Notes under the pieces: generated by a model | What the model saw: only the letters and a program-made list of their open reading frames with translations | Database searches by the model: none | What the model was told of the DNA's origin: nothing | Translations under genes and position numbers: made by a program | Shown here: positions 5,231 through 64,000 of the stretch, in pieces | How positions within the stretch are numbered: position 1 is the stretch's first letter | Layout of the letters: each line of letters starts with the position of its first letter | DNA from: an uncultured Acetatifactor sp. | GTDB lineage: Bacteria > Bacillota > Clostridia > Lachnospirales > Lachnospiraceae | Assembly (NCBI GenBank): GCA_910578815.1 | Contig: CAJTSE010000007.1 | Location: 103,739 to 167,738 of the forward strand | Length of the DNA stretch: 64,000 nucleotides | Direction: 5' to 3'

Positions 5231-5295
5231 CTTTCCTGTCCTGCCTTTCCCTCAATTCGTTCGGAAATCCCACAGCGACGGGGAACCGCGTACCC

Positions 5296-5778: not shown

Positions 5779-5797
5779 CCTATCTCCTTGTTTATAT

Positions 5798-6427
5798 CTA
5801 TTTTGTACCGAAAATACGGTCTCCCGCATCCCCCAGCCCCGGAACGATATAGCCATGATCATTCAGCTTCTCATCCAATGCCCCCACGTACATATCCACA
5901 TCCGGATGTGCCTCTTCCATGGCCCGGATACCCTCCGGCGCGGCAATAATACACATAAAATGAATATTTTTGCATCCCCGGTCCTTCAACATCTGTATCG
6001 CTGCCACCGAGGAACCGCCTGTAGCCAGCATGGGATCCACAACAAACACCTCGCGCTCCGCGCAATCCGCAGGCAGCTTGCAATAATACTCTACCGGTTT
6101 TAAGGTATCCGGATCCCGATAAAGACCAATATGCCCCACCTTTGCTGCCGGAATCAAATTCAGTATGCCGTCTACCATTCCCAGTCCTGCACGCAGAATC
6201 GGTATCACCGCCATTTTTTTGCCGCTCAGCTCTTTTGCCGTAGTCTTACAGATTGGCGTAGTGATCTCTACATCTCCCAGCTTCAGATCGCGGGTAGCCT
6301 CATAACAGATCAGCATGGCGATCTCGCTGATAGTCTGCCGAAAGTCCTTCGTGCCCGTCTCCTTTCTGCGAATAAATCCAATCTTATGCTGGATCAGGGG
6401 ATGATCCATGATTACCACTTTTGCCAT
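5798..6427 (-). CDS. upp: Uracil phosphoribosyltransferase
   Basis: Full-length Upp pattern: [24 protein letters not shown]...[11 protein letters not shown]...[17 protein letters not shown]. Confidence 0.95.
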
Positions 6428-6428
6428 C

Positions 6429-6863
6429 TTATTTTCCTCCCTCTATCATGTCAATTCTGCGTTGATGTTTTTCTTCACCGGAAAAATCCGTGTTCAGGAA
6501 GGTCTCCACAATATCCAGTGCAAGGCTGGTCCCCAGAATTCCGCCTCCCAGCGCCAGTACGTTGGCATCGTTATGCAGCCTTGTCATTTTAGCGGAAAAA
6601 GTGTCCGCACAAAGGGCACAGCGCACGCCCTGCACCTTGTTTGCCACCATGCTGATGCCAATGCCCGTGGTGCAGATAACAATGCCCTTTTCACAGCTTC
6701 CGTCCGCCACTGCCTCCGCTGCCGCCCGTCCATAGACAGGGTAATCCACGGAATCCCTGCCGTTGCACCCAAAATCCCGATAGGGAATGTTCTTTCCTTC
6801 CAGATAGCGCTTCACGCTTTCCTTTAATTCATAGCCGCCGTGGTCACTTCCGATTGCAATCAT
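6429..6863 (-). CDS. rpiB: Ribose-5-phosphate isomerase B
   Basis: [22 protein letters not shown]...[23 protein letters not shown] is the RpiB/LacAB family signature. Confidence 0.9.
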
Positions 6864-46058: not shown

Positions 46059-46985
46059 TTACTCCACCCTGTTTTCATCCCGGCTCATGAAAGTTTCAAA
46101 CTCTGAAACACTCTCTGTCTTAGCGGCTTTTTTGAGCCACTTACCCAGTATTTGCAGATCTGTTTCCTTTTGAATACGCTTTTTTAAAGCATTAGGTATC
46201 TCACCCTGTTCGCCCAGCAGTTCCAGAACAGCCTCTGCTTTTCCTTCTGCTTTTCCTTCTGCTTTTCCCTCTTCTCTTCCTTCTTCCCGTCCCAGGTCCC
46301 GGATATACTCGTCCTCCCCATAACGGTCCCTCACCGCCTTTAAATGCGCCTCATACCAATACCGCAGCGTTTTCCTCAGACTCATCCGTTTTATTACCTC
46401 TGACGCTTCCGCCAGTCCTTTATTCTTTGCCGCCAGCATATCCAATTCCTCCTCGCTCTTTGCATTAAACAGGCGAATCCAGTCATCCACCCCGCTGCCC
46501 TGCAGACTTTTCCTCAGCTCGATGATATGTATCTCCCACAGTCCTGTCAGTTCTTCACCGTACTCGTCCCGCACACGGTATACCGAGTGGTATTTTTCGC
46601 CTTCTAACAGCTGAAAATCCAAAATACCAATACTAATACACCGCTTGAGCCTTACGTAATTCTGACCTATTCGCAGATCCTCTTCATACATTTTGGCAAG
46701 ATAAAAAAGCTGCCTCTTGATCCAATACTTCTGTCTTCTGATCTGAAGTTCCACATTGACCTTTGTGTCGTCATTCAGTTCCAGCGCCATATCCAGAATT
46801 CCCAGCTTTTGATTACGGTATCGCCGCCACAGATGCGGCGTCACCAGCCTTGCTGCCTTTATGCTTTCCAGCGGGATCTCCAGAACATCACTCAAAAACT
46901 GCTTTCTGACATTTTCACAGGCAAACACCTCGCGGTACACCTCGTCATACTTCAAAGAAACTGGTTCTTTTGTATCTTTCTCCAT
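46059..46985 (-). CDS. Rpn-family recombination-promoting nuclease / PD-(D/E)XK putative transposase
   Basis: GILDMALELNDDTKVNVELQIRRQKYWIKRQLFYLAKMY (D...ExQ/K nuclease core) and a C-terminal EGREEGKAEGKAEGKAE repeat, typical of Rpn/YhgA-like proteins. Start at ATG 46985 with a GGAGGG RBS. Confidence 0.75.
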   Translation of the reverse strand: MEKDTKEPVSLKYDEVYREVFACENVRKQFLSDVLEIPLESIKAARLVTPHLWRRYRNQKLGILDMALELNDDTKVNVELQIRRQKYWIKRQLFYLAKMYEEDLRIGQNYVRLKRCISIGILDFQLLEGEKYHSVYRVRDEYGEELTGLWEIHIIELRKSLQGSGVDDWIRLFNAKSEEELDMLAAKNKGLAEASEVIKRMSLRKTLRYWYEAHLKAVRDRYGEDEYIRDLGREEGREEGKAEGKAEGKAEAVLELLGEQGEIPNALKKRIQKETDLQILGKWLKKAAKTESVSEFETFMSRDENRVE

Positions 46986-47243
46986 TTCCCTCCTGTTTTC
47001 CGCAGGAGAGAAATACCCTGCCGGGCACGACATATCTTTCTGAAAAAGTCTCCTGCTTTTAGATTAATTTGTTTGAATTAAAAGCATAGACTTTCTGAAA
47101 ATAGAATAATTGAACTGATTTTTCCCTTACGTTTAGAATTGTTATGCTTTGATTATAATCATATCATATTTGAGTCATTTGTCAAGAAAGTTAATTACAG
47201 TCTGGCTTCCATGTGTGTAGGATTACAGCCATGCTTCCATGTG

Positions 47244-49888: not shown

Positions 49889-50659
49889 TCATTTCTTCCA
49901 AGGCGCTTCTCCGCTCTCCCAAAGCTCTTCCAGATACGCCTTATCCCGCATATTATCCATCGGCGACCAAAACCCCTGATGCCTGTACGCGCTCATCTGC
50001 CCTGCCGCCGCCAGCCGTTCAAAGGGCTTACCCTCCAGCATTTCGCTTCCATCTCCCAGATACGCAAACACCTCCGGCTCCATTACCATAAATCCTGCGT
50101 TCACCCAAGCCTGATCCTCTCTTGCCTTCTCCTTAAACCGTAATATCTGATTACTCTCCGGCTCGATCTGCACGCCCCCAAATCTTCCTAATGGCTGTAC
50201 TGTAGTAATCGTTGCAATGCTCCCCTGCTGTTTATGAAACTCTATTAACTTCTGAATATCCACATCCGACACCCCGTCTCCATAGGTCAGAAGGAATGGC
50301 TCATTGCCGATATAATCCCTGACCTTCAGAACGCGCCCTGCCGTCAATGTATTCAGTCCCGTATTTGCCAGAGTCACCCGCCAGGGCTCAGCCGTAGCTT
50401 CATGAAAAACCGTCTTGCTGGAATCCAGACAGAAGGTGCTGTCTGCCTCATACATGTAATAATGGACAAAATACTCCTTTATCACCTGTCCCAAATAGCC
50501 ACAGCAAATAATAAATTCATGAAAACCATAGTGAGAATACAGCTTCATGATATGCCAAATAATAGGTTTTCCCCCGATCTCTACCATAGGCTTTGGCTTT
50601 GTTCTTGATTCTTCACTGATTCTGGTTCCCTTTCCTCCGGCTAAGATTACTACCTTCAT
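49889..50659 (-). CDS. rfbF: Glucose-1-phosphate cytidylyltransferase
   Basis: MKVVILAGGKGTRISEESRTKPKPMVEIGGKPIIWHIMKLYSHYGFHEFIICCGY is the canonical RfbF N-terminus. Start at ATG 50659. Confidence 0.9.
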   Translation of the reverse strand: MKVVILAGGKGTRISEESRTKPKPMVEIGGKPIIWHIMKLYSHYGFHEFIICCGYLGQVIKEYFVHYYMYEADSTFCLDSSKTVFHEATAEPWRVTLANTGLNTLTAGRVLKVRDYIGNEPFLLTYGDGVSDVDIQKLIEFHKQQGSIATITTVQPLGRFGGVQIEPESNQILRFKEKAREDQAWVNAGFMVMEPEVFAYLGDGSEMLEGKPFERLAAAGQMSAYRHQGFWSPMDNMRDKAYLEELWESGEAPWKK

Positions 50660-50699
50660 ACCTGCGCCCATGCCTTTCCGCAAATTTTTCTGTCCATAC

Positions 50700-51482
50700 T
50701 CATACGATCCAAGGCGCGCGCCCCTCATTCCATAGTCTCTCGGCCCCCACCAAATCGCGCATTGTTTCCACAGTGATCTGGTAACCTTCGTGCCGATAAG
50801 CTGCCACCTGCCCTGCGCCGGATAACCCGCGAAATATCTGCGTCTCCAAATCGCAGTTCCCCTGCAGATATTCCAGCGCTTCTTTTTTCATTACAAAGCA
50901 GTCCGCATTAACCCATGCCGCCTGCGCAACCAAAGGGCTTGTCTTCTCATAATCCAGCAAGCCACTCTCATCTATGGTGAGCAGCTGCTTGCGGCCCTGA
51001 GGCTTTGCCATCACCAGCGTTACCGGCTTCCCGCTTATTTTATGCGCCGCCAATAAAGCATCCGCATTCACATCTGAAAGGCAGTCACCATAAGTCACCA
51101 AAAAATCATCATCATCGTCATCCTCGCCGCACAGATAGCGGGATACGGCGCGAATACGCTGCCCTGGCGATGATTCCAGCCCCGTATCCACCACCGTCAC
51201 CTTCCAATCCTCTGTTCTCTTCTCATGGACCTCTATGGTATTTTTGCCTAAATCCACCGTAATGTCCGATTCAAAAATATAAAAATCATTGAAATAATCC
51301 TTGATACGGTCCACCCGATAACCGCCGCAGACAATAAATTCCTTCAGGCCATATTTTGAGAAATGCTTCATGATATGCCAAAGCAAAGGTCTTCCTCCCA
51401 ATTCCACCATTGGCTTGGGGATCCCCTCTCCGTTATTGCTGAGTGTACTTTGCCGGCCTCCTGCCAAAATCACTACCTTCAT
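50700..51482 (-). CDS. Second RfbF-like sugar-phosphate nucleotidyltransferase (divergent paralog with a poly-Asp insert)
   Basis: MKVVILAGGRQSTLSNNGEGIPKPMVELGGRPLLWHIMKHFSKYGLKEFIVCGGY parallels the neighbour, but the GxGTR loop is altered (GGRQST) and it carries GEDDDDDDF. Confidence 0.75.
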   Translation of the reverse strand: MKVVILAGGRQSTLSNNGEGIPKPMVELGGRPLLWHIMKHFSKYGLKEFIVCGGYRVDRIKDYFNDFYIFESDITVDLGKNTIEVHEKRTEDWKVTVVDTGLESSPGQRIRAVSRYLCGEDDDDDDFLVTYGDCLSDVNADALLAAHKISGKPVTLVMAKPQGRKQLLTIDESGLLDYEKTSPLVAQAAWVNADCFVMKKEALEYLQGNCDLETQIFRGLSGAGQVAAYRHEGYQITVETMRDLVGAERLWNEGRAPWIV

Positions 51483-51557: not shown

Positions 51558-51600
51558 CAAAACAAAGCGAGGAAATCTGTATGATAAAACAGACTTCCTC
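51558..51600 (-). terminator. Putative terminator of the RSH cassette
   Basis: Minus strand: GAGGAAGTCTGT-tttatcat-ACAGATTTCCTC (one mismatch) followed by GCTTTGTTTTG, 34 nt after the stop of the 182-aa ORF. Confidence 0.5.
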
Positions 51601-51633
51601 CGCCATTAATAATTTGAATAAAATGCGCGTAAT

Positions 51634-52182
51634 TCACTTATCGCTTGAAAAAACTATCTGCCCCGCCTTAAACGCTAATAGCATTAATTCCATGGACTGT
51701 GCATCACATTTTCTAAATTTAAGATAATAGTATAACGTGTCCAGGTAATTCTTAAATGCAGCCTGTTTATTACCAATCAGCGGCATATTAATCTTATCTC
51801 CAAGCATAAAACTGGTCAATCTGGTAAGCAGAAACTTTTCATTCACATACAGAAGCTTATCGTCCTCAATCTGCTTTTTTAGTTGAAGCGGCTTTCTTTT
51901 CAACAGCCAAAAGGTCTCGTATGCTTTAATTTTAATCTCATTAACATGTTCAATCTTCTGATAATCCTTTAAACGTTGAATATCCGAGAAATAATCCATA
52001 ATTGCATGTGTCAGCGCCATTTCATGTATATAAGCAACCTCTTCCAATTTATATACTTTCAGGAATTCCAGCATCTCCTGGCTAATCTGCTCAATACGTT
52101 TTTGGATTACCTCTTCTCCCACAACAGCCACTAATTCATCATATTTAACATAGGTATTCTCAATATTAATCATAACAATCAC
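51634..52182 (-). CDS. Hypothetical helical protein (about 180 aa), third gene of the RSH cassette; likely start ATG 52173
   Basis: AT-rich ORF. ATG 52173 overlaps the stop of the 73-aa ORF (ATGATTAA). No motif recognised. Confidence 0.6.
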   Translation of the reverse strand: MIVMINIENTYVKYDELVAVVGEEVIQKRIEQISQEMLEFLKVYKLEEVAYIHEMALTHAIMDYFSDIQRLKDYQKIEHVNEIKIKAYETFWLLKRKPLQLKKQIEDDKLLYVNEKFLLTRLTSFMLGDKINMPLIGNKQAAFKNYLDTLYYYLKFRKCDAQSMELMLLAFKAGQIVFSSDK

Positions 52183-52387
52183 TTCCCGTCAGTTCATACA
52201 CCATACAGCAATTTTTGCTGGGAAGAAAGTCTCTGTAAATCTGGTACTCCCTTTTTTCCACCTCACCTGTGTGAATACGTGAACTATTACCCAGCTTGTG
52301 GTTCCGAACCTTTCCCTGCTTAACTAATACCACACCCGCACTGGCAATTTCACTGGCACGTCTCACCTGCATTTTTGATCTTTCCAT
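52166..52387 (-). CDS. Hypothetical 73-aa protein, second gene of the RSH cassette
   Basis: Strong AAGGAGGG RBS 6 nt before ATG 52387, which is 15 nt after the RSH stop. No motif recognised. Confidence 0.65.
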   Translation of the reverse strand: MERSKMQVRRASEIASAGVVLVKQGKVRNHKLGNSSRIHTGEVEKREYQIYRDFLPSKNCCMVYELTGSDCYD

Positions 52388-52402
52388 GCTTCTCCCTCCT
52401 TA

Positions 52403-53362
52403 TCACTCATCAATCACTGATTGCAAGCAGCCTGATGGTGTATTTGCATATTCGTCTCCTGCCGCGGAAGACGAATCAGCGTTATTCACGCTTTCAGCTT
52501 TCCCTGCCATTTCCACATCATATGCCATACCATCATCTATGGGTATATTCTGAATATTTTCCTTCTCGATTTCTTTCAAGTGATAAAAAAAACTGCTCAT
52601 TTCATCAGCCAAGCCGGACAGCCTGTTCAATAATTCTGTATATTCTTTCAATGTCCGATCATTTTTGAAATACGGGTAAACGATTGCATGGTCAACCTCT
52701 CCCCAACCTTCTTCAAACAATGTTCGCACCTGTATTTCTAAATATGCTCCCTGATATTTTATGATATAATGAGCCGAACGGTACACCTTTCCATCAATAA
52801 CGCAATCCGGAGGAAGAAGTTCGTCATAAATCTCTCTTGCGTCTCCATTTCTAATATGAACCTTAGGCGGCTCCGCAATATAATAATGGTCTAAATTGCT
52901 GTCAAAATCCAATATACAGTCTTTGACATAATACTCAATATTATTCTCAAATTTTGATATAATATAATTATGAAAACTTTTCCAATCAGCTTTAAACAAG
53001 ACAAAGCACCTTATTCCAATCAAGTCAGTAATAAACTTTTCATAATTTGTCTTGTCTAAATTTTTATATTTATTTTGATTCTCCTGCTTTTTGCGGATAA
53101 TTTTCTCAATTACATGCTCTGCCTGCTTCACTCTGCCTCTATAAGAATGCACTTTGACTGTTTTTTCGACATCATCCCCTATTTTATTAATATCCTTTAG
53201 GTAATTATCAATAAAGTCGTCTAAAATACGTTGATATTTGTCATGCTTAGTTTCTTCAAAATCTTTATATATGTCGCAAAGCTCATCCCAGGTAATTTCG
53301 GCACTCAAAAACAGATCATCAGTAATATTGAACTTTTCCAAAAATTTTTCTTTTGTAATCAA
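52403..53362 (-). CDS. RelA/SpoT-synthetase-domain protein (small-alarmone-synthetase fold, toxSAS-like), about 320 aa
   Basis: Ordered RSH synthetase motifs: YRGRVKQAEHVIEKIIRK, DLIGIRCFV, YRSAHYII, LEIQVRT, WGEVDH. TTG start at 53362, with a GAGGTGA RBS 5 nt upstream. Confidence 0.8.
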   Translation of the reverse strand: MITKEKFLEKFNITDDLFLSAEITWDELCDIYKDFEETKHDKYQRILDDFIDNYLKDINKIGDDVEKTVKVHSYRGRVKQAEHVIEKIIRKKQENQNKYKNLDKTNYEKFITDLIGIRCFVLFKADWKSFHNYIISKFENNIEYYVKDCILDFDSNLDHYYIAEPPKVHIRNGDAREIYDELLPPDCVIDGKVYRSAHYIIKYQGAYLEIQVRTLFEEGWGEVDHAIVYPYFKNDRTLKEYTELLNRLSGLADEMSSFFYHLKEIEKENIQNIPIDDGMAYDVEMAGKAESVNNADSSSAAGDEYANTPSGCLQSVIDE

Positions 53363-53389
53363 TACACTCACCTCAAGTATACACAATTT

Positions 53390-53417
53390 ATTATAAATAT
53401 ACAAAGATAACTTGTAA
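53390..53417 (-). promoter_or_regulatory. Putative promoter of the RSH cassette: TTACAA-N16-TATAAT (minus strand)
   Basis: TTGTAA at 53412-53417 and ATTATA at 53390-53395 on the plus strand. About 28 nt upstream of the TTG start. Confidence 0.35.
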
Positions 53418-53458
53418 TCATCCTTGTATCATGTCACCGTTTTAATGTAAGCATTTTA

Positions 53459-53716
53459 CTATATTGACAAAATATTTGCAAGAGTTTTTTTACCGTCCAC
53501 TTCCTGTAGCGCCTCCCAGAACCTCTCCATACACCTTTTGGCTCCTGTAGATACCCTGATCCAGCCTTTCAAGATCCCCTTTTCATAATCTCTGACCCAG
53601 ACATTTTTCTCCTTCAATGCCTTTACCACGGTCTGCGAATCCTTTACTGACAAAAACAAAACATAATTGCCCTCCATCGCCAGGGTGCGATAGCCCGCTT
53701 CACGCAGGCGCGCCAT
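53459..53716 (-). pseudogene. C-terminal stub (85 aa) of a class I/II PLP aminotransferase (HisC-like)
   Basis: NYVLFLSVKDSQTVVKALKEKNVWVRDYEKGILKGWIRVSTGAKRCMERFWEALQE matches only the last ~80 residues of such enzymes. No upstream continuation. Confidence 0.5.
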
Positions 53717-53931: not shown

Positions 53932-54549
53932 TTACTCTCGAATCATATTGTACCCACTTGTAGTAAACACAACATTTGTATCAACGCCGGATATAAGCTC
54001 TATTCCAAAGCGATCTGCCAGACAAGTCGCATAAACAGTATCATATGTCCGTGCCATAATAAAATGAAATGCCTCCAGCAAACAGGAAACTGCTTCCTGC
54101 TTATTGCCAATAACTGCTCCATTTCTGACGGTACACCCGCTCATAATGGTTACATTATCTCCAATCCAAATATCGTTTTGAAGAACAATGCTTCCCTTTT
54201 GGCAAAAGGTACTTCGTATACTTTGAGTCTTACTGATTCCGCTATAATGCAAGTGCGTTTCTACCCCCCCTGAAGAAACACACTTTATATTATGATTCCT
54301 GCCAAATACACATCTTAGGTTGGAACCAATGCTGTTTCCGTTTCCGATATGAAAATTATGCGGAACCCCTCTTTCCTTATCGCATATATGAAGATCATTA
54401 TCTACCTAGGTTTCCCAGGAGTAAGTGTATGGTCCTATGTAGGCAATCGTATATCTAACACTATCACCAATATTAACCAATAATCTTTCCTCTGAGGGTG
54501 CTGTTGTTTTTAAATCTGTCCTCGGTTGGATTATAAATGTTTGAATCAT
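53932..54549 (-). pseudogene. Xenobiotic/hexapeptide-repeat acetyltransferase (XAT, Vat/CatB-like) interrupted by an in-frame TAG, with a degenerate C-terminus
   Basis: Manual minus-strand translation from ATG 54549 gives MIQTFIIQPRTDL...IGPYTYSWET*VDNDLHIC...HIGNGNSIGSNLRCVFGRNHNIK...NDIWIGDNVTIMSGCTVRNGAVIG. The TAG is at 54408-54406, in the same frame as tracked ORF 53932-54252. Confidence 0.5.
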
Positions 54550-54658: not shown

Positions 54659-55834
54659 CTATAACTCAATCACCTCATTTGTCACTTCCATGTCAGCGAT
54701 TCTCTCCATGACCTCATGCGCATACATCATGACGCAGATCAAAATAACCGCATTCGGGTATTTACGAATCACTTCCGGAGCTTCAATCTTCCTTCCGGCG
54801 ATTTCACGCCCTACATTAAGAGGGTTGCCATCTACAAAGGCCGCAATTTCACATTTTCCTAACGCCGTTTCCGCTAATAACGTCATTGTCATGGCCCCCG
54901 TCCCCCATACGATCAACTGCGTTTGCTCCTTGTACAGCTTCTCAACAAGCTCCTTTATTTCCCGCTGACGTTTTTCCTGCCGTAAAAAATAGCTTTCAAT
55001 AGATCCTCTTGTAAGACAGTCTTTCTCCATACCAGCGTCCACATTCTTTTCACTTTTTTTACAGAAAAACAACCTGCACAATTCGCATCCGATCCCATTC
55101 GCATTTTTTAACTCCAACGGGAAAGATTGATAAACTCGAAAATCTGTGTCTTCCAGCAAATTCCTGACAGAACGCTCAGAAAAGTAATTGATATGTTCCT
55201 GATTAAACTGATTAGGAATCGGCAATACCACATTATGTACAAATGAGTAGTCTGGAATATCAATTATGAAATACCCTCCCTCCTTCAAATACGGACTGAT
55301 CATATCAAGTGCCTGTTTGGGCTCCAGTAAATGCTCCAACACAGCCGTCAGCAGCACCACATCCAAACTGCCCTTCAAGTCGTCCATTTCTGCAGGAGGG
55401 CAATAGATGCTTCCCTGATACGCGTTAATTCCCAGTTTTTTTAAATGCTCCACGCTGAAAGGCGAAGGATCCATGCCTGCTAAGCTGGTATACCCAAGTT
55501 GGCGCAGATGTAATAAAAGATCTCCTTTTCCGAAACCAATATCCAGGATTCGGATAGATCTCACCCCTCCCATCTCCGTTTCCAAAAACTTTTCAATACA
55601 GTTCACCGCTGTAGATGCGATACCACTCGAATTGCCGCTGTAACTGTTATTTGTCCTGTAATAATGATCATAATCCTCCAACCGCGCACTTGTATCCGCG
55701 TAGCACGACCCACAGTATTTACATGACACCACATTGTAACTCCTTGGAAGATGACATTCCAAGGGAAGCTCCATCCGAATTTCCCTGATAATATCTGACT
55801 GCTTACTTCCGCATACCGGACACTTTCGTGACAT
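54659..55834 (-). CDS. Class I SAM-dependent methyltransferase with an N-terminal Zn-ribbon and a C-terminal Rossmann-like domain
   Basis: CPVCGS...CKYCGSCY zinc ribbon and the SAM motif ILDIGFGKGDLLLHL. Start at ATG 55834 with a GGGAGGA RBS. Confidence 0.75.
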   Translation of the reverse strand: MSRKCPVCGSKQSDIIREIRMELPLECHLPRSYNVVSCKYCGSCYADTSARLEDYDHYYRTNNSYSGNSSGIASTAVNCIEKFLETEMGGVRSIRILDIGFGKGDLLLHLRQLGYTSLAGMDPSPFSVEHLKKLGINAYQGSIYCPPAEMDDLKGSLDVVLLTAVLEHLLEPKQALDMISPYLKEGGYFIIDIPDYSFVHNVVLPIPNQFNQEHINYFSERSVRNLLEDTDFRVYQSFPLELKNANGIGCELCRLFFCKKSEKNVDAGMEKDCLTRGSIESYFLRQEKRQREIKELVEKLYKEQTQLIVWGTGAMTMTLLAETALGKCEIAAFVDGNPLNVGREIAGRKIEAPEVIRKYPNAVILICVMMYAHEVMERIADMEVTNEVIEL

Positions 55835-55904
55835 ACAATTTCCTCCCGACATGATAATGAATAAGAACAACGTTCCGATAACTGAACCTTTCCTTATTGA
55901 TGCA

Positions 55905-57029
55905 CTAAATGTGAAACCTCTCTCTGGCAATACTTATTTTTTGCGGAATATCTATTCCCTGTGGGCACTTGTGTTTACAAAGACCGCAGCCAATACAGTT
56001 TTGAATTCTTCCACTCGCCTCATGATACGCAAAATCCAGCTTTGCCCGTTCTATGCCAACCAGTCTGCTTGCATTCAAACGGTTCATACAAGCCGGAATA
56101 TTCACTCCCCTTGGACAAGGCATACAATACCCGCAGGAAGTACAAGGTACATCCATTACCTTGCGAATTTCTGCGGCGGCAGAAGCATATGATGATAATT
56201 CAGCCTCCGTCAGGGATTGCGCCCAGGTATTTTCTGCAACCTGGCAGTTCTCCTCAATCTGATAAATTTCATTCATCCCTGACAATACCATTGTCACATC
56301 CGGTCGGTTCAAAACATACCTCAATGCTCTGGCGGCATAGGAATAATGATGCGGCAGCATATCAAAAATTCGCTTTGCACTATCCGGCAAATGCTCTGCA
56401 AGCATACCACCGCGAACCGGCTCCATAATGAACACCGTAATTCCCTGCCTGGAAGCAAATTCCAGTCCTGTTAGTCCTGCTTGCCAATCCTCATCAAGAT
56501 AATTAAATTGAATCATTGTAAAATCCCAATCGTATGCCGGTATCAGCCGCACAAATTCTTTGTAACTCGCATGACTGGAAAATCCAATATTTTTTATCCT
56601 TTTCTGTTGCTTCATTTTGTCGATCCAGTCTGCAATTCCCCAATCCATCAACTGCTCCAGACGCTCTTTGCGATTCAATGCGTGAAGAAAATAATAGTCA
56701 ATATAGTCCATCTGCAAACGATTCAGGGATTCTTCAAAATAATAATCAAAGTCAGACGGGGACTTGCAATATGCAATCGGCAGCTTCGTCGATACTGTTA
56801 CACTATTGCGCAGCCCCAGTTTTGCAATAGCATTACCGAGAGCCACCTCACTTCCCTCATACGAATATGCCGTATCAAAATGAGTAATTCCCAGTTCAAA
56901 CGCCCTTTCTACTAATCGAATAACTGCTGTCTGATCTATGTTTCCGTCTGTTGTCTTTGGAAGCCGAAGCCCGCCAAAGCCCAGCGCCGGCAGCCTGTCC
57001 CCGTTCTTTTTATTTATTCTATATTGCAT
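55905..57029 (-). CDS. Aldo/keto reductase fused to a C-terminal 4Fe-4S ferredoxin-like domain
   Basis: AKR N-terminus LPALGFGGLRLP...THFDTAYSYEGSE and C-terminal Cys clusters CTSCGYCMPCP / CIGCGLCKHKCP. Confidence 0.8.
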   Translation of the reverse strand: MQYRINKKNGDRLPALGFGGLRLPKTTDGNIDQTAVIRLVERAFELGITHFDTAYSYEGSEVALGNAIAKLGLRNSVTVSTKLPIAYCKSPSDFDYYFEESLNRLQMDYIDYYFLHALNRKERLEQLMDWGIADWIDKMKQQKRIKNIGFSSHASYKEFVRLIPAYDWDFTMIQFNYLDEDWQAGLTGLEFASRQGITVFIMEPVRGGMLAEHLPDSAKRIFDMLPHHYSYAARALRYVLNRPDVTMVLSGMNEIYQIEENCQVAENTWAQSLTEAELSSYASAAAEIRKVMDVPCTSCGYCMPCPRGVNIPACMNRLNASRLVGIERAKLDFAYHEASGRIQNCIGCGLCKHKCPQGIDIPQKISIARERFHI

Positions 57030-58018
57030 TACTTCTCTCTTTCCAAACGTGCTAAGATTCTCTGAGCATATTCGTCGATATTATCAGGTTGGTTTGATTT
57101 CGTAACGGAACATACCCGGCAGTACTCACATATTTCTTTTCTTAATAAGCTTGTCCGTAGCTTCCGAAGCTGCTCACCATTCCAGATCTGCGCAATTCTC
57201 GTCTGATAAATATTTCCGAGCAATAGCGTTCGCTTCCAATCAACACTGCAAGGCATAACATCGCCGTTTGCCGCCAGGCACAAAAGCTTAAAGGGCTGTA
57301 CACAGACATCCTTTTTATTCTTATATTGTTCCAGATCATACCGCACGGAGTTCCCGTCTGTACCTGCCTGAAATTCCGGCCAGTTTTCATATACATGTTC
57401 TATTTGTATTTCGTCACAGACCTCGCCCCATTTTTCATAAAATGCTTTTCTTTCCGACTCCGTATCAAGCGCAAGATCCGTTGTTTTTATATAAAGAATA
57501 CACTTATTTCTGCTGCGCTTAAAAAAATAATCAATATTTTCATACAGCTCGTTAATTTGAATACGCACACCGGCAATTTTTTCAAATTTATTTTCATCCG
57601 TTGCTTCCAGTGATACAAGCAATGTATCAAGTCCTGCATCAATCAATTTATCGGACAATTCCCTCGTCAAAAGCGTTCCGTTTGTGGTAATTTCGACCTT
57701 TTCAAATACACCGGATTGTTTTGCCTCTGAAACGAATTCGGCAACATTCCTGTTTAGTAAAGGCTCGCCTATTCCTATGATCCGTAAGATCTTTATTTTC
57801 CTCGGAAACTCACGGCACTGCGCAAGAAACAGCTTAAATGTCTCAAACGACATCATATCCCTGATAATACCGCTGTCTGATGCCCCCCCCGGACAAAATT
57901 TACATTTCAGATTGCAAAACCCGCAAGTTTCCATCTGTATCACCAATGGAGTATTCAATGGAATCGCTTCGCCAAGGTTTATCCTTGACGGATTAAACAA
58001 ATTTCCTATTTTTGCCAT
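57029..58018 (-). CDS. Radical SAM protein with a SPASM/twitch-type C-terminal Cys cluster
   Basis: CGFCNLKCKFCPG (CX3CX2C), with C-terminal CVQPF...MPCSVDW...CEYCRVC. Its stop overlaps the AKR start (TAATG). Confidence 0.8.
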   Translation of the reverse strand: MAKIGNLFNPSRINLGEAIPLNTPLVIQMETCGFCNLKCKFCPGGASDSGIIRDMMSFETFKLFLAQCREFPRKIKILRIIGIGEPLLNRNVAEFVSEAKQSGVFEKVEITTNGTLLTRELSDKLIDAGLDTLLVSLEATDENKFEKIAGVRIQINELYENIDYFFKRSRNKCILYIKTTDLALDTESERKAFYEKWGEVCDEIQIEHVYENWPEFQAGTDGNSVRYDLEQYKNKKDVCVQPFKLLCLAANGDVMPCSVDWKRTLLLGNIYQTRIAQIWNGEQLRKLRTSLLRKEICEYCRVCSVTKSNQPDNIDEYAQRILARLEREK

Positions 58019-58073
58019 ATCTGTCCCTTTCTACACATAAACTATATTAGCTGACGTTAATCCTCTCAATATT

Positions 58074-59168
58074 TTATACAAAATACATCCTTGTATCGTC
58101 ATATCTGTCCGTATAATGTCTTATATAAAGGTGGTACTGCGGATAGAACTTCAATATTCTTTTCGTAAGACGATGAATATCACCCAATCTGTGATAAACG
58201 CTGACGGAAAGTAACGGCTGCTTCTCTTTAATGAATTGCTCTGCTCCACAGATCGCATCCATCTCTGCGCCTTCTATATCCATTTTGATATATGACAGTC
58301 TGGGTGTAATAAACTCATCTAACGAAACTACCCGAATGGTTTGCCTGCCAGCAGCAGAAACGCATCCGCCGCCAGTTTCAAAATTATCAAATTGAGATAA
58401 TCCTTTTATCGCACCGACTCCCGCCTGAATATATTCGATATCACGATTTGAGCTTAATCTGTTTCGGCTCTTATTCATCATGCTTTCGTCCGGCTCAAAA
58501 AAATACACCTTTTTGTAATTTTTTACTTTTTCAATAAAGTCGATTGTACTCTGACCGTCAAACCCTCCAACATCAAAAAAGACAGGTGACTCTCCTTCCA
58601 ATCTGCGTAGTATAACGTTATCCAGATCCGGCTTTCCCTCCTGCTCCGATAACTCATGGGCTCTAATAGTATACTCCGTGTCAAATGTCATACGATACAT
58701 CAATATATTCTGATATATCTCTTTGGATAAGTCATCCTCAAGCAGAGAATAAACATCCTCATATTCCCTACCGTTTTTCTCCATCTCATCAAATATGCCC
58801 AAGAATGCCGTCTCGTGATATACCCTGAATCTTTCGTCAGCCTGTGCCAGACACTCGTAATATATATAATTTTTTACTCCGGCCGCAGCTAATTGCTTAC
58901 AAATATCTACATGATATATGGATGCAACAATCACGCAATCTTCTTCATTTAAAATATCCGGCAGAAAAGTATTGCCTCCCTCATTTGACACAAAACCATG
59001 TACTGTAATCGAATTCTTTTCACACTCCTTCTGTGCAAACCTGCCAAGGCACTTCGCGCCAAAAATATAGCATCCTTTCTCAAAAATTTTACTGATAACA
59101 TGTTGATATTTTTCTTTCATTGCATTTCTGGCATTATTTGCCCTGAAATCGTCGATATTGCAAACCAC
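58074..59168 (-). CDS. FkbM-family methyltransferase with an N-terminal Rossmann-like domain
   Basis: VFFDVGGFDGQSTIDF...IKMDIEGAE is typical of FkbM methyltransferases. Confidence 0.75.
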   Translation of the reverse strand: MVCNIDDFRANNARNAMKEKYQHVISKIFEKGCYIFGAKCLGRFAQKECEKNSITVHGFVSNEGGNTFLPDILNEEDCVIVASIYHVDICKQLAAAGVKNYIYYECLAQADERFRVYHETAFLGIFDEMEKNGREYEDVYSLLEDDLSKEIYQNILMYRMTFDTEYTIRAHELSEQEGKPDLDNVILRRLEGESPVFFDVGGFDGQSTIDFIEKVKNYKKVYFFEPDESMMNKSRNRLSSNRDIEYIQAGVGAIKGLSQFDNFETGGGCVSAAGRQTIRVVSLDEFITPRLSYIKMDIEGAEMDAICGAEQFIKEKQPLLSVSVYHRLGDIHRLTKRILKFYPQYHLYIRHYTDRYDDTRMYFV

Positions 59169-59197
59169 TTAAATTTCCTCCTACTTTTTTGTTTCCT

Positions 59198-60082
59198 TCA
59201 ATACAGAAGTTTATAGAGATCAATCATTTCCTCTCGGTCTTTGTACCAATCGTATAGCGCTTTTATAGCAGTTTCTTTGGCAGTAAAGGCAAAGTCCGAG
59301 CATTCGCTCAGAAACCTCTCATTGGACGCCGTATATTCCTTGGCAAGGCCCTCCCTGCATACATACACCCGCATATCTCTGCTCGATATTCTGTTTACAA
59401 TATCACAGAGCTCACTCAAACTGATCTTATCTCCCGACACCATGTTATAGGAGTGAAACCTGGGCTCATGAGACAGGAAAAATTCTAACATCCTGGAAAA
59501 ATCCTCTACCCACAGATAGTCAAAATAAACATTCTGGCGCATGGAAAACGGTATCCCTTTAATTGCCTTACAGCATATGTTGGATATAAACTTCGTGGGA
59601 TAATACTCATACTTTCCAAATATGCCAAAGAGCCTGAAATTATATATATTATTACTTGCTTCTATCATCCGGCCTACCGTATATTTCATCAAACCATACT
59701 GATCTGTCGGAATTGACTGCCCAATTTCCGTCTCTTTTACATTTACAATATCATACCTTTTGTCATATTCGGCTCCAGATCCAGTATAATACATCCTTCC
59801 GTACAGCCTGCTGCACTTTTGAAAGTTCAGAAACATCCTCAGATTATATTCTAAAATCTTTGTCCTATCCTTAGCTTCGCCAATTCTATCCTCATAGACC
59901 GCAAAATGAAGAACAAAGTCAAAATAATTCCTCTCAAGATATTCCCTTACCGCTGTCTCGTCTATACAGTTCAGTTCCTTGCTTGAAGGCGCAAAGACCT
60001 GATAACCACTTTGCTTTTCAAGATATTCTTTCACATTCCTGCCCACAAAACCGCTGGCGCCTGTTATTAAGATTTTTTTCAT
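59198..60082 (-). CDS. NAD-dependent sugar epimerase/reductase (SDR family)
   Basis: MKKILITGASGFVGRNV Rossmann motif. Start at ATG 60082 with a GGGAGGGGAG RBS. Confidence 0.8.
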   Translation of the reverse strand: MKKILITGASGFVGRNVKEYLEKQSGYQVFAPSSKELNCIDETAVREYLERNYFDFVLHFAVYEDRIGEAKDRTKILEYNLRMFLNFQKCSRLYGRMYYTGSGAEYDKRYDIVNVKETEIGQSIPTDQYGLMKYTVGRMIEASNNIYNFRLFGIFGKYEYYPTKFISNICCKAIKGIPFSMRQNVYFDYLWVEDFSRMLEFFLSHEPRFHSYNMVSGDKISLSELCDIVNRISSRDMRVYVCREGLAKEYTASNERFLSECSDFAFTAKETAIKALYDWYKDREEMIDLYKLLY

Positions 60083-60208
60083 TTGTCTCCCCTCCCACCA
60101 GAAGATAGTCTCCCGTGATTCCCCGGTGCTACAAACGCATTCCCACAGCTTCTTGTTCTTTACTCCCAACGGCATACCAAAACCGATCCTGTTGACTGTT
60201 CGCAGTAT

Positions 60209-61387
60209 CTAAAAAAGAACCTCGTTAATATATTTTTGTAGTTTTTTCTGAGTCTCCTCAGTGTCCACAAAACACTTTTGAATCTTAGTATCTGCCTTGA
60301 TTTCCTCTACGACGGCCTGCTCAAACAGCTCTGCACTGTTCCCCAACCCAAAATATCTTGACTTTACCCGATATTCCTTCGCTTTCTCAATCGCCTTGCG
60401 GATCGCATCATATTGTTCTTCTACATGACATATATTTCGTAATACCCTCGGATTATATCGGCCTGCCTGCCTGGAACCAATGTCTATGCACGGTACGCCG
60501 TACACACAGGCTTCTCTGATTCCCGCGCTGGAATTTCCGATAATGAAATCCGCATTCTTCAGCAATACAAGAAAGGTTTCAAACGGAAACGATTTCTGAA
60601 AAAACAAATTCTCATACTTCCCCTCGCTCTTTACATATAAATCAATGATCGTATCCGAACCAAGATCGTTATTAGGATAAATTATAATGTAATTTCTTTG
60701 GGAATCAAGAACAGCCTTAAATACCTCACCAAACTTCCGTTTAATATCCGTGCTTTCTGTCACCACGGGATGATATGTCAATATTCCGTATTTTTCATAC
60801 GTGATACCATACTCCTGCTTTATGTCAACAAGCTCAGGTAAGTCCCCCGAAACCATTATATCAACATCCGGCGATCCTATAATATGAATCTTTTCTTCCT
60901 GTTCTCCCAGCTGTATTAGTCTTAACTTTGTCTCTTCGTTCGCCGTACAATGTATATGCGCCAACTTGGTAATCGCATGCCGAATAGAATCGTCCACAGT
61001 CCCGGTCAGCTCGCCGCCTTCTATATGGATCACCTTGATATTGTTGAGCAGTCCGACAATCGCTCCCGCAAAGGCATCCGTCCTGTCGCCATGGATCACA
61101 ATGTAATCCGGTTTTATTCCGCCCACATACTTCGAAAAGCCTAACACAACATTGGCAAGATTAACGTCCATCCTGGAATCTACAGTTTTCGGATCTTCCA
61201 CATATATGTTAGCATATCCATCTTTCTTTACTTCTTTCCATGTATTCCCGTATTGCTCCAAAAGGTGCATACCTGTCACATAGACATATACCTGAAACAT
61301 ATTATTATTTGATAATTGTCTCATCAGAGACTTCAGCTTACCGTAATCAGCTCTTGTCCCGGTGAGAAACACAATCTTGTGCGCCAT
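60209..61387 (-). CDS. neuC: UDP-N-acetylglucosamine 2-epimerase (hydrolysing), NeuC-like
   Basis: KIVFLTGTRADYGKLKSLM...VIHGDRTDAFAGAIV...HIEGGE matches hydrolysing 2-epimerases. Sits next to neuB. Confidence 0.8.
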   Translation of the reverse strand: MAHKIVFLTGTRADYGKLKSLMRQLSNNNMFQVYVYVTGMHLLEQYGNTWKEVKKDGYANIYVEDPKTVDSRMDVNLANVVLGFSKYVGGIKPDYIVIHGDRTDAFAGAIVGLLNNIKVIHIEGGELTGTVDDSIRHAITKLAHIHCTANEETKLRLIQLGEQEEKIHIIGSPDVDIMVSGDLPELVDIKQEYGITYEKYGILTYHPVVTESTDIKRKFGEVFKAVLDSQRNYIIIYPNNDLGSDTIIDLYVKSEGKYENLFFQKSFPFETFLVLLKNADFIIGNSSAGIREACVYGVPCIDIGSRQAGRYNPRVLRNICHVEEQYDAIRKAIEKAKEYRVKSRYFGLGNSAELFEQAVVEEIKADTKIQKCFVDTEETQKKLQKYINEVLF

Positions 61388-62426
61388 CTGCAATCATCCT
61401 CTTACTTATATGCGTATCCCTGTTAATATCAACTTTTGCTGTTTTTCCTAATAGGCTTTCGTATTCTTCCGCCTTAATCTCTCCTGTCCCCGGTCTTTTT
61501 ACCCATATATTTTCTGTGGAAAAGACTTCTCCACGCTTTATGGGTTTTATGCTCACAACCGTTGCAAAAGCAAAATCCATCGTGACCTGCTCTTCCGGGA
61601 GCGGTTTTTTCTCTCCTCCACGCATCTCATAAACTTCTGCCGCGGCCTGAAGTAATTCGCACAACTCATTCTGATCCATCGAACAGACAATGTCATTTCC
61701 GGCTCTGTTTTTATGGTCTGTATAGTGCCTTTCCACAATGCTTGCCCCTAATGCCATTGCTGCTATACACGCATTATTATTCAACGTGTGATCCGAAAGT
61801 CCCACCGGTCTGTCCGGATAAGCGCTCATGATCGTCTGCATGGCCCCTAACCGCACAAATTTTGCCGGGGTAGGATACAGATTGGTAGTATGTAAAATTG
61901 CTATGGGCACATTTCTAGAGTCAAATATATCTACCGCTTTTCTTACAGACTCCATATCGTTCATTCCCGTAGATAATATTACCGGTCTGCCAAATTCAGC
62001 AATACACTTCAACAGCGGATAATTATTCATCTCGCCCGACCCAATCTTAAATGCCTTGACACCGAACTTTTCCAGACGATATGCTGCCGCCCTGGAAAAT
62101 GGAGTGCTGATAAACTCCATTCCAAGACTCTCCGCATATCTCATCATTTCTTTCTCTTCGTCTTCACTCAAAGCACACGTTTTCATCACATCATAAATCG
62201 AATCCACCGAATTACCAGGAATAACCTTCCTGGCTTCCGCTGACATCTCATCGTCGATCACATGAGTCTGATGCTTAATGATCTTAGCTCCCGCCTTATA
62301 AGCAGATTCCACCATCTGCATTGCCACGTCCAGATCTCCGCCATGATTAATCCCAATCTCAGGAATGACCAACGGTGTCCCATTCGCTTCAACACGTATA
62401 TCACCGATTTTAAAGCTCATTTTCAT
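61347..62426 (-). CDS. neuB: N-acetylneuraminate (nonulosonate) synthase with a C-terminal SAF domain
   Basis: PLVIPEIGINHGGDLDVAMQMVESAYKAGAKIIKHQTH is the canonical NeuB start. The C-terminal SAF-like segment is IKRGEVFSTENIWVKRPGTG. Confidence 0.9.
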   Translation of the reverse strand: MKMSFKIGDIRVEANGTPLVIPEIGINHGGDLDVAMQMVESAYKAGAKIIKHQTHVIDDEMSAEARKVIPGNSVDSIYDVMKTCALSEDEEKEMMRYAESLGMEFISTPFSRAAAYRLEKFGVKAFKIGSGEMNNYPLLKCIAEFGRPVILSTGMNDMESVRKAVDIFDSRNVPIAILHTTNLYPTPAKFVRLGAMQTIMSAYPDRPVGLSDHTLNNNACIAAMALGASIVERHYTDHKNRAGNDIVCSMDQNELCELLQAAAEVYEMRGGEKKPLPEEQVTMDFAFATVVSIKPIKRGEVFSTENIWVKRPGTGEIKAEEYESLLGKTAKVDINRDTHISKRMIADGAQDCVSHRDKS

Positions 62427-64000
62427 TCTCCCCTAAATATAAACTGACAATTCTTGTACTGCTCTTCTGTTAAAAATGGATATAAGTCGTCAATGGGTGG
62501 CGACACAATATTTCCATTCTCATCTTCTTTACTTTTTACCCGTGGCTCGATCCCCTGCGAATCATCCTGAATCAGTTCACATATCGCATATCCTTTTATT
62601 TTTACAAACTCTTTTATCTTTGCCGCAATGTCGGCATTGTTTTCTATTTTCATATATGGAAATCCAAATGCTCCTGCTATTTTTTCAAAATCAGGCATAC
62701 TCACTCCCGATTCTTTAGAACACCCGGATAAACGTCCGTTAAAAAAATTGGTCTGTGTCTGCCGTATTGCCTGATAACCATAGTTGTTGAATATTATCAC
62801 CTTTACCGCCAGGCCATAATGTACAATAGTCTGAAGTTCCTGCAAATTCATCATGATACTTCCGTCACCGGTTATGCAGAAAACTTCTCCTTTCCCGGCT
62901 AAGGCCGCACCCACGGCAGCCGGCAGGTCATATCCCATTGTACCGCAGTTGGCATTTCCAAACAGCCTCTGTCCCCTTTTACGGATCCCCATTTGAAGTA
63001 CAGAAACACACGCGACGCTGTTTCCCACTACATTAATATCTGTTTCAGCCTGATTATTTTGCAATTCCTTATATAAATAATATGGATTTACGTTTTTACT
63101 TTTTTCGAATCTTGACACATAAACAGGAAAATGAGCCTTCAACTCGTTGCAATACTCTACCCAGTGCGAGATCTGAGGCGACACATCATTTCCATGTGCC
63201 AGAAAATAATCAACAGCCTCTTTTAAATCACAGTTAATAGGTAAATCAATCCTAATGATATCTTTTTTCAGTTCATTTGCGTCAACATCAATCACAATTT
63301 TCTGGGAGGAAGGTGAAAAACTTTGATAATTAAATCCCACATGCTTAAATGTCATTCGACACCCAAACGCGATGATCAAGTCTGCATTCTGTACAATAAA
63401 ATTACCCACCCGACCGCCAAAGGATCCAAAATTACCATAATAATTTTCCGCCTCGGTTTCAAATAAGTCTGCAACACTGGTGGCTGCCAGAGTAGGTACC
63501 TTCATCAAGTCCACCATCTCTCTGAACTCATTTTCATGCCCGCACGCCCGCACAGCAGACCCCGCCAAAATAACAGGCCGTTTCGCCTCCTTAAGCATTT
63601 TCAGGGCTTCATCGAATAATCCACTGCGCCAATTATTCTTCATCGTGTTCCTATCTGGGGTATACTGTTCTAAATCTTCCGTGTCAATGACCGCCCCCTG
63701 AACATCCAACGGTATATCCAGCCAGCAGGGCCCTCTTCTTCCATCCATGGCGATATGCAATGCCTTTTGTAAAAAATAAAGAATTTTCTGCGGCTCCCTG
63801 ACCATGACTGCATACTTAGTCATAGGTTTCACCGTTGGGATGATCGTATATTCCTGTTCCCCAAACTGTCTTAAATTTAACCCTGTACTTTCCACTGTAG
63901 TGGCATACCTGACCTGTCCCGATACGATCAACATTGGAATATTGTCCTGCCATCCACACAAAACACCTGTCAACGCATTTGTGCCTCCGGGACCTGTTGT
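62423..64000 (-). CDS. Thiamine-diphosphate-dependent enzyme (acetolactate-synthase-like), 5' end beyond the window
   Basis: ThDP-binding motif ITGDGSIMMNLQELQT...IIFNNYGY and the middle/PP domains of the ALS/YerE-type family. The ORF is still open at position 64000. Confidence 0.8.
   Translation of the reverse strand, partial: TTGPGGTNALTGVLCGWQDNIPMLIVSGQVRYATTVESTGLNLRQFGEQEYTIIPTVKPMTKYAVMVREPQKILYFLQKALHIAMDGRRGPCWLDIPLDVQGAVIDTEDLEQYTPDRNTMKNNWRSGLFDEALKMLKEAKRPVILAGSAVRACGHENEFREMVDLMKVPTLAATSVADLFETEAENYYGNFGSFGGRVGNFIVQNADLIIAFGCRMTFKHVGFNYQSFSPSSQKIVIDVDANELKKDIIRIDLPINCDLKEAVDYFLAHGNDVSPQISHWVEYCNELKAHFPVYVSRFEKSKNVNPYYLYKELQNNQAETDINVVGNSVACVSVLQMGIRKRGQRLFGNANCGTMGYDLPAAVGAALAGKGEVFCITGDGSIMMNLQELQTIVHYGLAVKVIIFNNYGYQAIRQTQTNFFNGRLSGCSKESGVSMPDFEKIAGAFGFPYMKIENNADIAAKIKEFVKIKGYAICELIQDDSQGIEPRVKSKEDENGNIVSPPIDDLYPFLTEEQYKNCQFIFRGE

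Follow-up and report, generated by a model that had tools for sequence, protein, structure and literature searches.

In the window, i.e., the whole stretch of 64,000 nucleotides (nt) analyzed here from contig CAJTSE010000007.1 of an uncultured Acetatifactor sp. (Lachnospiraceae; assembly GCA_910578815.1), three minus-strand genes form a compact, translationally coupled unit which extends from 53418 to 51559. The first gene encodes a RelA/SpoT homologue (RSH) of the small alarmone synthetase type. The two following genes, here named sm and hel, encode a short basic protein and a helical protein. Judged by gene order and protein conservation across species, RSH-sm-hel is a conserved, self-contained unit of gut Clostridia. 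A first-pass annotation, which was made from the letters alone, had described the locus as a candidate tripartite toxin-antitoxin (TA) or anti-phage module built around a toxSAS-like synthetase. The reading toward which we tentatively lean is a three-component conflict module of the abortive-infection or defence-like kind, in which the RSH would be a latent effector gated by sm and hel as an adaptor/sensor pair.

In this model, the RSH bears a flexible acidic C-terminal tail, which would end in a short conserved helix. The adaptor sm would bind this tail by its N-terminal half and hel by its C-terminal half, and the hel-sm pair would gate the activity of the RSH upon a trigger. Once released or activated, the RSH would most likely pyrophosphorylate a free nucleotide, leading to a (p)ppGpp- or (pp)pApp-type burst, and this burst, together with the drain of ATP and GTP, would stop growth. 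The physical binding, the direction of control, the trigger and the product chemistry are the parts that we infer. The operon anatomy, conservation, purifying selection, fusions, alternative first genes and the defence island of one relative were observed directly.

Conservation of the three genes and signs of mobility

The RSH carries the RelA_SpoT domain of Pfam (PF04607, E=2.4e-13, 50.8 bits against a gathering cut-off of 27). The residues of the RxK, DxxGxR, YRSxHY, EIQVRT and EEGWGExDH motifs are invariant in 30 of 30 homologues (R77, K79, D113, G116, R118, Y194, R195, H198, E209, Q211, R213, T214, E222, D224, and H225). By this domain and its intact synthetase motifs, the protein is assigned to the RSH synthetase superfamily. 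A total of 2049 RSH homologues were found.

The identical RSH is present on 60 contigs, and the same context was seen in all 23 contigs that were read. Homologues with 56-65% identity retain the trio, spacing and overlap included, in neighbourhoods that differ widely from one another, and the gene order is unchanged in every close homologue examined. A scan of GTDB with one genome per species yielded 420 RSH relatives, the best 80 loci of which were examined. RSH, sm, and hel in the same order and with the same sm/hel overlap were identified in 29-30 of these 80 loci, among them loci of Sellimonas, Eisenbergiella and Robinsoniella whose RSHs show 46-48% identity. About 50 of the best 80 loci contain a shorter solo RSH of 255-290 amino acids (aa) without a conserved neighbour. 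The trio was also found in two distant metagenomic lineages, one from termite gut (L105) and L108. A single-protein scan of metagenome contigs for further hel contexts returned one short contig. The recurrence of the three-gene arrangement is far beyond chance.

The two partner proteins show 58-95% and 73-93% identity, respectively, among their best matches. Both can still be recognised in the Sellimonas-type clade, with 24-33% (sm) and 35-47% (hel) identity to the window proteins. In the close clade hel is the most conserved of the three, and in Sellimonas this rank is taken by the RSH. The ratios of nonsynonymous to synonymous substitution rates (dN/dS) lie between 0.02 and 0.14 for RSH, sm, and hel, with 0.09-0.14 for sm, and indicate purifying selection. 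The conserved linkage of the trio in the best 80 species loci and the reality of the two small open reading frames (ORFs) in close homologous loci (conserved, dN/dS about 0.1), both of which the first-pass annotation had left to be checked, were thereby confirmed.

The trio has a GC content of 0.362, compared to 0.503 for the downstream genes, 0.420 for the upstream genes and 0.473 for the whole window, which puts figures to an AT-richness previously noted by eye. In the close clade the GC content of the trio ranges from 0.30 to 0.43 (mostly 0.33-0.36) and is equal to or lower than that of the flanks (0.33-0.54) in every locus. The insertion sites vary between related genomes, and the trio neighbourhoods have no common gene beyond the trio itself. 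In Schaedlerella it is flanked by glycan genes on one side and by PilZ, an FlhB-like gene and CheA on the other. Further trios were found in a LicD teichoic/glycan locus (L010), next to FtsEX/PcsB/CtpB and a gene for a 2034-aa protein (L013), and in an MBOAT/AlgX locus (L016). Low GC content, scattered sites, bordering gene fragments, one disrupted trio, and RSH relatives on plasmids and prophages are signs of mobility.

Three explanations of these contexts were rejected. A role in flagellar regulation, as could be taken from the Schaedlerella locus, does not hold because this context is not common to the other loci. An obligate link to glycan loci fails as well: such loci are frequent, but L019, L021, L023 and L024 lie elsewhere. 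A phage- or plasmid-borne trio was discarded since the respective collections lack hel, and the sole viral contig with a hel-like gene (L101) has no RSH. On this contig (5615-6393), an acidic ORF of 76 aa runs into the start of a hel relative of 183 aa, which lies just upstream of genes for an HNH endonuclease and the small and large terminase.

The RSH tail and its partner proteins

The C-terminus of the RSH consists of a variable acidic linker (approximately residues 266-306) and a conserved terminal motif, NTPxDCLxSVLDE. This tail comprises about 55 aa of linker plus the 13-aa motif and has an isoelectric point (pI) of 4.05 in the window protein. The motif has the form NTPxDCLxSVLDE in the close clade and is QDAIDSILKE-like in Sellimonas. 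A related C-terminal motif is found in most sm/hel-linked RSHs and is absent from the solo forms. The core of the RSH is acidic too (pI 5.4), which would suit a nucleotide as substrate better than a tRNA. The trio RSH has its N-terminal helical region in common with solo, plasmid and prophage relatives.

Neither sm nor hel matched Pfam, PADLOC or PHROGs, NCBIfam gave nothing above cut-off, and no sequence match to PDB families was obtained for either protein. The basic sm (pI 9.15) reached a predicted local distance difference test (pLDDT) score of 56 in AlphaFold2 (AF2) and, according to this model, is probably not folded alone. The AF2 model of hel (pLDDT 86, predicted template modelling score 0.82) is a helical bundle with eight helices by DSSP, for which Foldseek found no neighbour in PDB (best E=2.2, TM<0.3) or BFVD. 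In an exhaustive search with a hidden Markov model (HMM), the hel family amounted to 575 clusters at the 50% identity level, and 359 clusters scored E<=1e-10. A set of 77 diverse members matched no Pfam family, and their profile found no PDB sequence.

The possibility that hel is a small alarmone hydrolase of the ATfaRel type was rejected. The family has no conserved HD dipeptide, no Pfam HD domain and no fold match in PDB or BFVD, and the reading was also dropped because hel stands behind non-RSH first genes as well. Two tandem hel-hel duplications of 363-370 aa occur (P0363 and P0368). In a further protein (P0432), the N-terminus of a GlmS-like glutamine amidotransferase is joined to hel, which may be an assembly chimera.

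Natural fusions suggest an interaction chain from the RSH tail over sm to hel. One protein (P0493) contains full sm and hel in one chain (hhalign probability 93%, E=2.5e-7). In the complete genome of Sellimonas caecigallum, residues 1-34 of sm continue in frame into hel, the C-terminal half of sm having been deleted. In a metagenome-assembled genome (MAG) of Drancourtella, the RSH is fused to the C-terminal half of sm and the N-terminal half is deleted. In both deletion-fusions, the chain would stay connected only under one pairing, with the N-terminal half of sm held by the RSH tail and its C-terminal half held by hel; the reverse pairing would break both complexes. On these grounds, sm is proposed as an adaptor tethering hel to the RSH tail. 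The terminal motif of the RSH is present where sm and hel are and disappears with them, and the charge of the tail contrasts with that of sm (pI 4.05 vs. 9.15). The motif is regarded as a putative docking site for sm.

The solo RSHs end right after the last core helix. In a bootstrapped neighbour-joining (NJ) tree, the solo clade is monophyletic (support 100) and lies inside a group with both trio clades (99), followed by the termite-gut trios as the next outgroup (93). The solo clade is thus nested in, or sister to, the trio clade, and on this tree the trio is probably ancestral, with the solo forms having arisen by loss. A second case is given by L069 and L071, which share their site between two transporters (MATE and MFS by eye) with the trios of L048 and L061. 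These loci lack exactly the tail, sm, and hel, and the RSH has kept all catalytic motifs (dN/dS 0.036; nesting support 99/100). This is an unambiguous second and independent loss of the partners. By these comparisons, sm and hel disappeared on at least two occasions from loci in which strong purifying selection on the RSH continued.

Such repeated loss of sm and hel next to an intact and selected RSH is hard to square with an obligate antitoxin. An exception would be a toxicity which depends on the tail, since the tail was lost each time too. Because the loss of partners and tail leaves a selected and catalytically intact RSH, the enzyme seems to be latent rather than lethal.

Distant relatives, alternative readings and known systems

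Six distant hel contexts were retrieved. Two of them are again RSH-sm-hel trios, one from termite gut with a CYTH gene upstream (L105) and the other at L108/L109. In the remaining four, a membrane protein of about 160 aa with 3-4 transmembrane (TM) helices is followed by a 90-117-aa protein with an N-terminal TM helix and then by hel (L102-104, L107, L110, and L153). Two of the TM-anchored middle proteins show an sm-like motif by eye, which was detected neither by the sm HMM nor by BLAST. The cassettes of L102-104 adjoin serine recombinases, Fic and a transposase, and the cassette of L153/L154 lies between two AbiEi/AbiEii pairs and an AAA_15/RloB pair; by its gene families, this setting is that of a typical defence island. 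That one conserved partner unit goes with different putative effectors in mobile or defence contexts is, as judged from gene neighbourhoods, the strongest argument for a conflict function.

A wider reading, which we hold with somewhat more reserve than the conflict module itself, is that sm-hel would be a widespread adaptor/sensor unit acting on interchangeable effectors, on the RSH via its tail and on the membrane protein via the anchored sm variant. The cassettes would then make up a new three-gene immunity family, and the housekeeping-looking solo synthetases of many gut Clostridia would be domesticated remnants. The novelty lies in the partner family, the suggested modularity and the trio-to-solo transitions, the three-gene toxSAS layout being already known. 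If true, the model would describe a new mode of RSH control, with a two-protein adaptor/sensor on a flexible tail as opposed to an adjacent or fused antitoxin, and would offer the first functional handle on a large protein family without annotation or recognisable fold. Trio, fusions, solo forms and membrane-effector variants would form a natural series of alarmone synthetases between housekeeping signalling and conflict. The host organisms are Lachnospiraceae that are abundant in the gut and whose defence systems and alarmone biology have received little study.

Two of the distant cassettes have additional genes at their borders. In L102 (2638-4218), the gene for an AAA-ATPase_like/PDDEXK_9 protein of 526 aa runs 4 nt into the start of the membrane-protein gene and may encode a fourth component. 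In L105 (3304-3747), the 147-aa CYTH protein (triphosphate tunnel metalloenzyme) is encoded 179 nt upstream of the trio; a possible role is that of a fourth component with a polyphosphorylated nucleotide as its target.

The main alternative, which appears less likely to us, is physiological signalling. Here, the RSH would be an ordinary small alarmone synthetase making (p)ppGpp/pGpp for stress adaptation, sm and hel would be accessory regulators, and the cue would possibly be the state of the envelope, the surface glycan or the flagellum. Several observations weigh against the conflict module, and some of them speak for signalling directly. The RSH is closest to the housekeeping-type enzymes RelP and RelQ, its nearest solved relatives, and has an acidic core like an ordinary synthetase of this kind. 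The solo clade lies in core and purine-metabolism neighbourhoods (dnaX, pfkA, def, mgtE, hpt, and guanine deaminase, names by eye only), and the RSH outlives the loss of its partners under strong selection. The Sellimonas trio, stable beside dnaX and pfkA (again named by eye), has a host-like GC content and looks vertically inherited. Cell-envelope contexts recur as well: glycan clusters flank the trio in the window, L010, L016, L018 and L020, flagellar and chemotaxis genes adjoin it in Schaedlerella, and FtsEX/PcsB/CtpB in L013.

To the same side belong the results of the collection searches and the narrow base of some comparisons. No system model of PADLOC-DB v2.0.0 was matched by the trio, with PDC-S33 at E=0.012 as the only signal. 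Neither the plasmid nor the phage collections contain hel, and only one of 2.9 million viral contigs has it. Only six distant contexts were sampled from the 575 clusters, and the relative in the defence island is 30-35% identical, has a different effector and represents one locus type only. Furthermore, the Drancourtella fusion comes from a MAG and may reflect decay of the locus, and the position of the solo clade in the NJ tree is weakly resolved (67%).

Signalling, however, leaves other findings unaccounted for. For a dedicated alarmone regulator, it is unexpected that the hel family and a TM-anchored small protein stand behind membrane proteins in mobile and defence-island contexts. The foreign GC content and scattered insertion sites of the close-clade cassette, the neighbourhoods without a common gene beyond the trio, and the deletion or frameshift of the trio in one strain also speak against it.

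The original idea of the first-pass annotation, a classical TA system of the toxin-antitoxin-chaperone (TAC) type, is considered improbable. It would make the RSH a constitutive toxin, sm a labile disordered antitoxin and hel a chaperone-like stabiliser of sm. The coupled operon is TA-like, sm is predicted to be disordered on its own, and hel, the most conserved protein in the close clade, resembles a SecB-like chaperone in combining its conservation with variable first genes. Moreover, three-gene toxSAS operons exist (FaRel; PMC7229694), and the Sellimonas RSH is more conserved than its partners, as toxins often are. Against this stand the independent losses of sm and hel beside an intact, selected RSH, which could be reconciled with a toxin only if the co-lost tail were needed for toxicity. 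The partners also show no similarity to a known toxSAS antitoxin (SAH/HD, DUF4065/Panacea) or to SecB, and the proxies used (PDB sequence and profile searches) did not place the RSH in a validated toxSAS clade.

That the small ORFs are chance or decaying frames beside a stand-alone RSH, as might be thought from their missing database annotation and from the short, in silico poorly folding sm, is effectively refuted by the conservation data, i.e., by partners conserved as proteins and recognisable up to the Sellimonas-type clade (dN/dS ~0.1), by order and overlap kept in 29-30 species loci, by the existence of fusion proteins, and by the hel model with its pLDDT of 86.

Among known systems, the toxSAS (FaRel, FaRel2, PhRel, PhRel2, and CapRel; PMC7229694) share with the trio the stand-alone RSH synthetase, the tightly coupled two- or three-gene operon, the non-enzymatic neighbours of unknown fold, and RSH relatives on plasmids and prophages. 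Conserved and tightly linked neighbour genes, by which toxSAS are recognised, are present in the trio. The FaRel operon is itself tricistronic (PMC7229694), but its RSH is the central gene, whereas the RSH is the first gene of the trio. In contrast to toxSAS operons, sm and hel are unrelated to the SAH/HD hydrolase, DUF4065 Panacea, ATfaRel2 and ATcapRel/ATphRel, the RSH core is acidic, PDB searches reach RelP/RelQ, and the loss of partners has been tolerated in evolution.

The label toxSAS-like given in the first-pass annotation finds no support in the PDB results, the acidic core, the partner-less relatives in core-gene contexts and the evolutionary loss of the partners. Its further statement that no described family corresponds to the trio stands for the two partners, which lack a match in Pfam, PADLOC, NCBIfam and PDB, and for the catalogued defence systems of PADLOC. 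It does not stand for the layout, as a three-gene toxSAS operon is known (PMC7229694). Similarly, the helical N-terminal extension, put forward as a special feature, proved to be shared with solo, plasmid and prophage relatives. The acidic/Ser-rich tail persists as an acidic variable linker, which is followed by the conserved motif NTPxDCLxSVLDE.

The phmmer and profile searches of PDB reached RelP/RelQ only, irrespective of whether the RSH, the 30-sequence profile or the pXO1, pMARC1 and prophage relatives were used as query (cut-offs E<=10 for the profile and the prophage relative, E<=1 for the other queries). No PDB match to the CapRel, FaRel2, PhRel2 and Tas1 structures was obtained, whose presence in that PDB copy was not independently checked. 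Membership in CapRel, FaRel2 or Tas1 was set aside, as no sequence link was found even via plasmid and prophage intermediates.

The nearest solved structures by sequence, RelQ (YjbM) and RelP (YwaC), have the same catalytic motifs, are acidic and have a similar core size, and the solo relatives look like ordinary chromosomal small alarmone synthetase genes. The trio RSH differs from them in an insertion of ~70 aa between DxxGxR and YRSxH, a conserved helical region at the N-terminus, a C-terminal tail that ends in the terminal motif, and, as seen from the operon layout of the trio clade, two co-transcribed partner genes. Its score for the NCBIfam equivalog GTPPhKinYjbM is 22.6 bits, far below the cut-off of 320.

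CapRelSJ46 (PMC9712102) resembles the proposed model in the idea of an RSH effector which a C-terminal element keeps inactive until a trigger activates it. CapRel is a single polypeptide with a C-terminal antitoxin/sensor domain and a defence HMM match, neither of which was found for the trio RSH; the regulatory function of the trio would instead be split over two proteins on a short tail. With TAC systems the trio has in common the number of genes, a conserved third component with different effector/adaptor pairs, and a middle protein that is probably disordered alone. It differs from them in that hel is an all-helical bundle without SecB similarity, so that the SecB-like third gene of a TAC system is missing. 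In addition, no known toxin or antitoxin family is involved, and no evidence of chaperone addiction was seen.

RSH relatives with 30-41% identity are single proteins of 330-500 aa, located on prophage-like viral contigs, pXO1, the Paracoccus plasmid pMARC1 and a Ralstonia phage. The prophage relatives have C-terminal extensions of their own, as CapRel does, but by eye these do not resemble the CapRel antitoxin domain, and they show no homology to CapRel. The extensions of the 330-500-aa relatives resemble, again by eye, coiled coil or sequence of low complexity. sm and hel are absent beside all 36 viral RSH relatives. On Paracoccus marcusii pMARC1 (L098; 5122 bp, seven genes), a 389-aa RSH relative with 35% identity adjoins a BrnT/BrnA toxin-antitoxin pair, and plasmid stability or defence is a candidate function for the wider RSH family.

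Features of the cassette and the surrounding glycan locus

The features of the cassette and of its upstream border are listed in Table 1.

Table 1. Predicted genes, signals and border fragments of the RSH-sm-hel cassette in the window.
Feature	Position	Strand	Remarks
Sigma-70-like promoter ATTACA-17-TATAAT	53390..53418	-	Consensus match, 10/12; 28 nt upstream of RSH start
RSH gene, small alarmone synthetase type, 319 aa, TTG start	52403..53362	-	Stop included
RelA_SpoT synthetase domain, residues 76-231	52670..53137	-	Pfam; nearest solved structures RelP/RelQ
Conserved C-terminal motif NTPSGCLQSVIDE, residues 307-319	52406..52444	-	From alignment; proposed sm docking site
sm, 73-aa basic protein, ribosome binding site AAGGAGGG	52166..52387	-	ATG 15 nt after RSH stop
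hel, 179-aa helical-bundle protein	51634..52173	-	ATG inside ATGATTAA, 8-nt overlap with sm
Intrinsic-terminator-like hairpin and T-run	51559..51600	-	12-bp stem, 8-nt loop; 34 nt past hel stop
85-aa remnant resembling class I/II aminotransferase C-terminus	53459..53716	-	Pfam E=0.0066, weak; upstream border of the cassette
106-aa hexapeptide-repeat transferase fragment	53932..54252	-	Hexapep E=1.2e-5, 25.2 bits, below the 27-bit cut-off

Most of the anatomy given in the first-pass annotation was recovered unchanged. This holds for the coordinates and synthetase motifs of the RSH, on which Pfam and the alignment of 30 homologues agree, for the 73-aa ORF with its ribosome binding site and distance to the RSH stop, for the overlapping helical ORF of about 180 aa, which has 179 aa, and for the hairpin terminator with its stem and T-run, placed at 51600..51569(-). 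The promoter was confirmed in its site and corrected in its register, reading ATTACA-17-TATAAT rather than TTACAA-N16-TATAAT. Promoter-like sites are frequent in the region (17 found vs. 7.8 expected), and this one is a consensus match only. The RSH ORF is present as called, and its start codon was mended to a TTG at 53362, which follows a GAGGTGA Shine-Dalgarno sequence; the homologues begin with MITKE. A search against Rfam gave no RNA family or riboswitch match in the whole window.

The gene wreckage reported at the border of the cassette exists in the form of two fragments, of which the aminotransferase assignment is weak and that of the hexapeptide transferase remains below the cut-off. 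The 85-aa aminotransferase-like fragment is kept in other strains and deleted in L151, and the hexapeptide-transferase fragment is annotated with 106-116 aa in other strains. An allele with an empty site was not found in the window species among 23 contigs, in which only a deletion variant occurs. This variant, GCA_948672275.1 (L151 ~5250-6850), belongs to the window species and has a 1422-bp deletion. Lost with it are the upstream fragments, the promoter and ~128 codons at the start of the RSH. The variant also carries a 1-bp frameshift in hel, which could be an assembly error.

The cassette interrupts a glycan cluster for a rare sugar of the nonulosonic-acid type, in agreement with the earlier view of inserted cargo in a variable glycan locus: it is compositionally foreign and has the glycan cluster on both sides. 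The upstream side encodes NeuB, a UDP-GlcNAc 2-epimerase, a thiamine pyrophosphate enzyme, a radical S-adenosylmethionine (SAM)/SPASM protein and methyltransferases. The downstream side encodes two nucleoside triphosphate (NTP)-transferases, a DegT aminotransferase and an epimerase, followed by a PD-(D/E)XK transposase, rpsF and ssb. The two NTP-transferases are overlapping tandem paralogues of 279 and 260 aa directly downstream of the trio (49889-51482, minus strand), and the start calls of the first one vary by strain, giving 279 or 260 aa.

The PD-(D/E)XK_2 transposase-like gene (46059-47033, minus strand) lies between the glycan cluster and rpsF-ssb. At the same spot, another strain (L001/L149, 11126-12713) has TnpV, an HTH_17 gene, DUF5131 and an AraC/GyrI-like regulator instead, so that this spot is a strain-variable hotspot ~4.5 kb downstream of the trio.

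Finally, the part of the glycan cluster at 54659-63973 on the minus strand also encodes an aldo-keto reductase with Fe-S motifs and methyltransferases with a C2185-like N-domain. Its gene content suggests an unusually decorated nonulosonic acid as product. The cluster is a possible flagellin glycosylation island, as comparable genes in Schaedlerella adjoin flagellar and chemotaxis genes.

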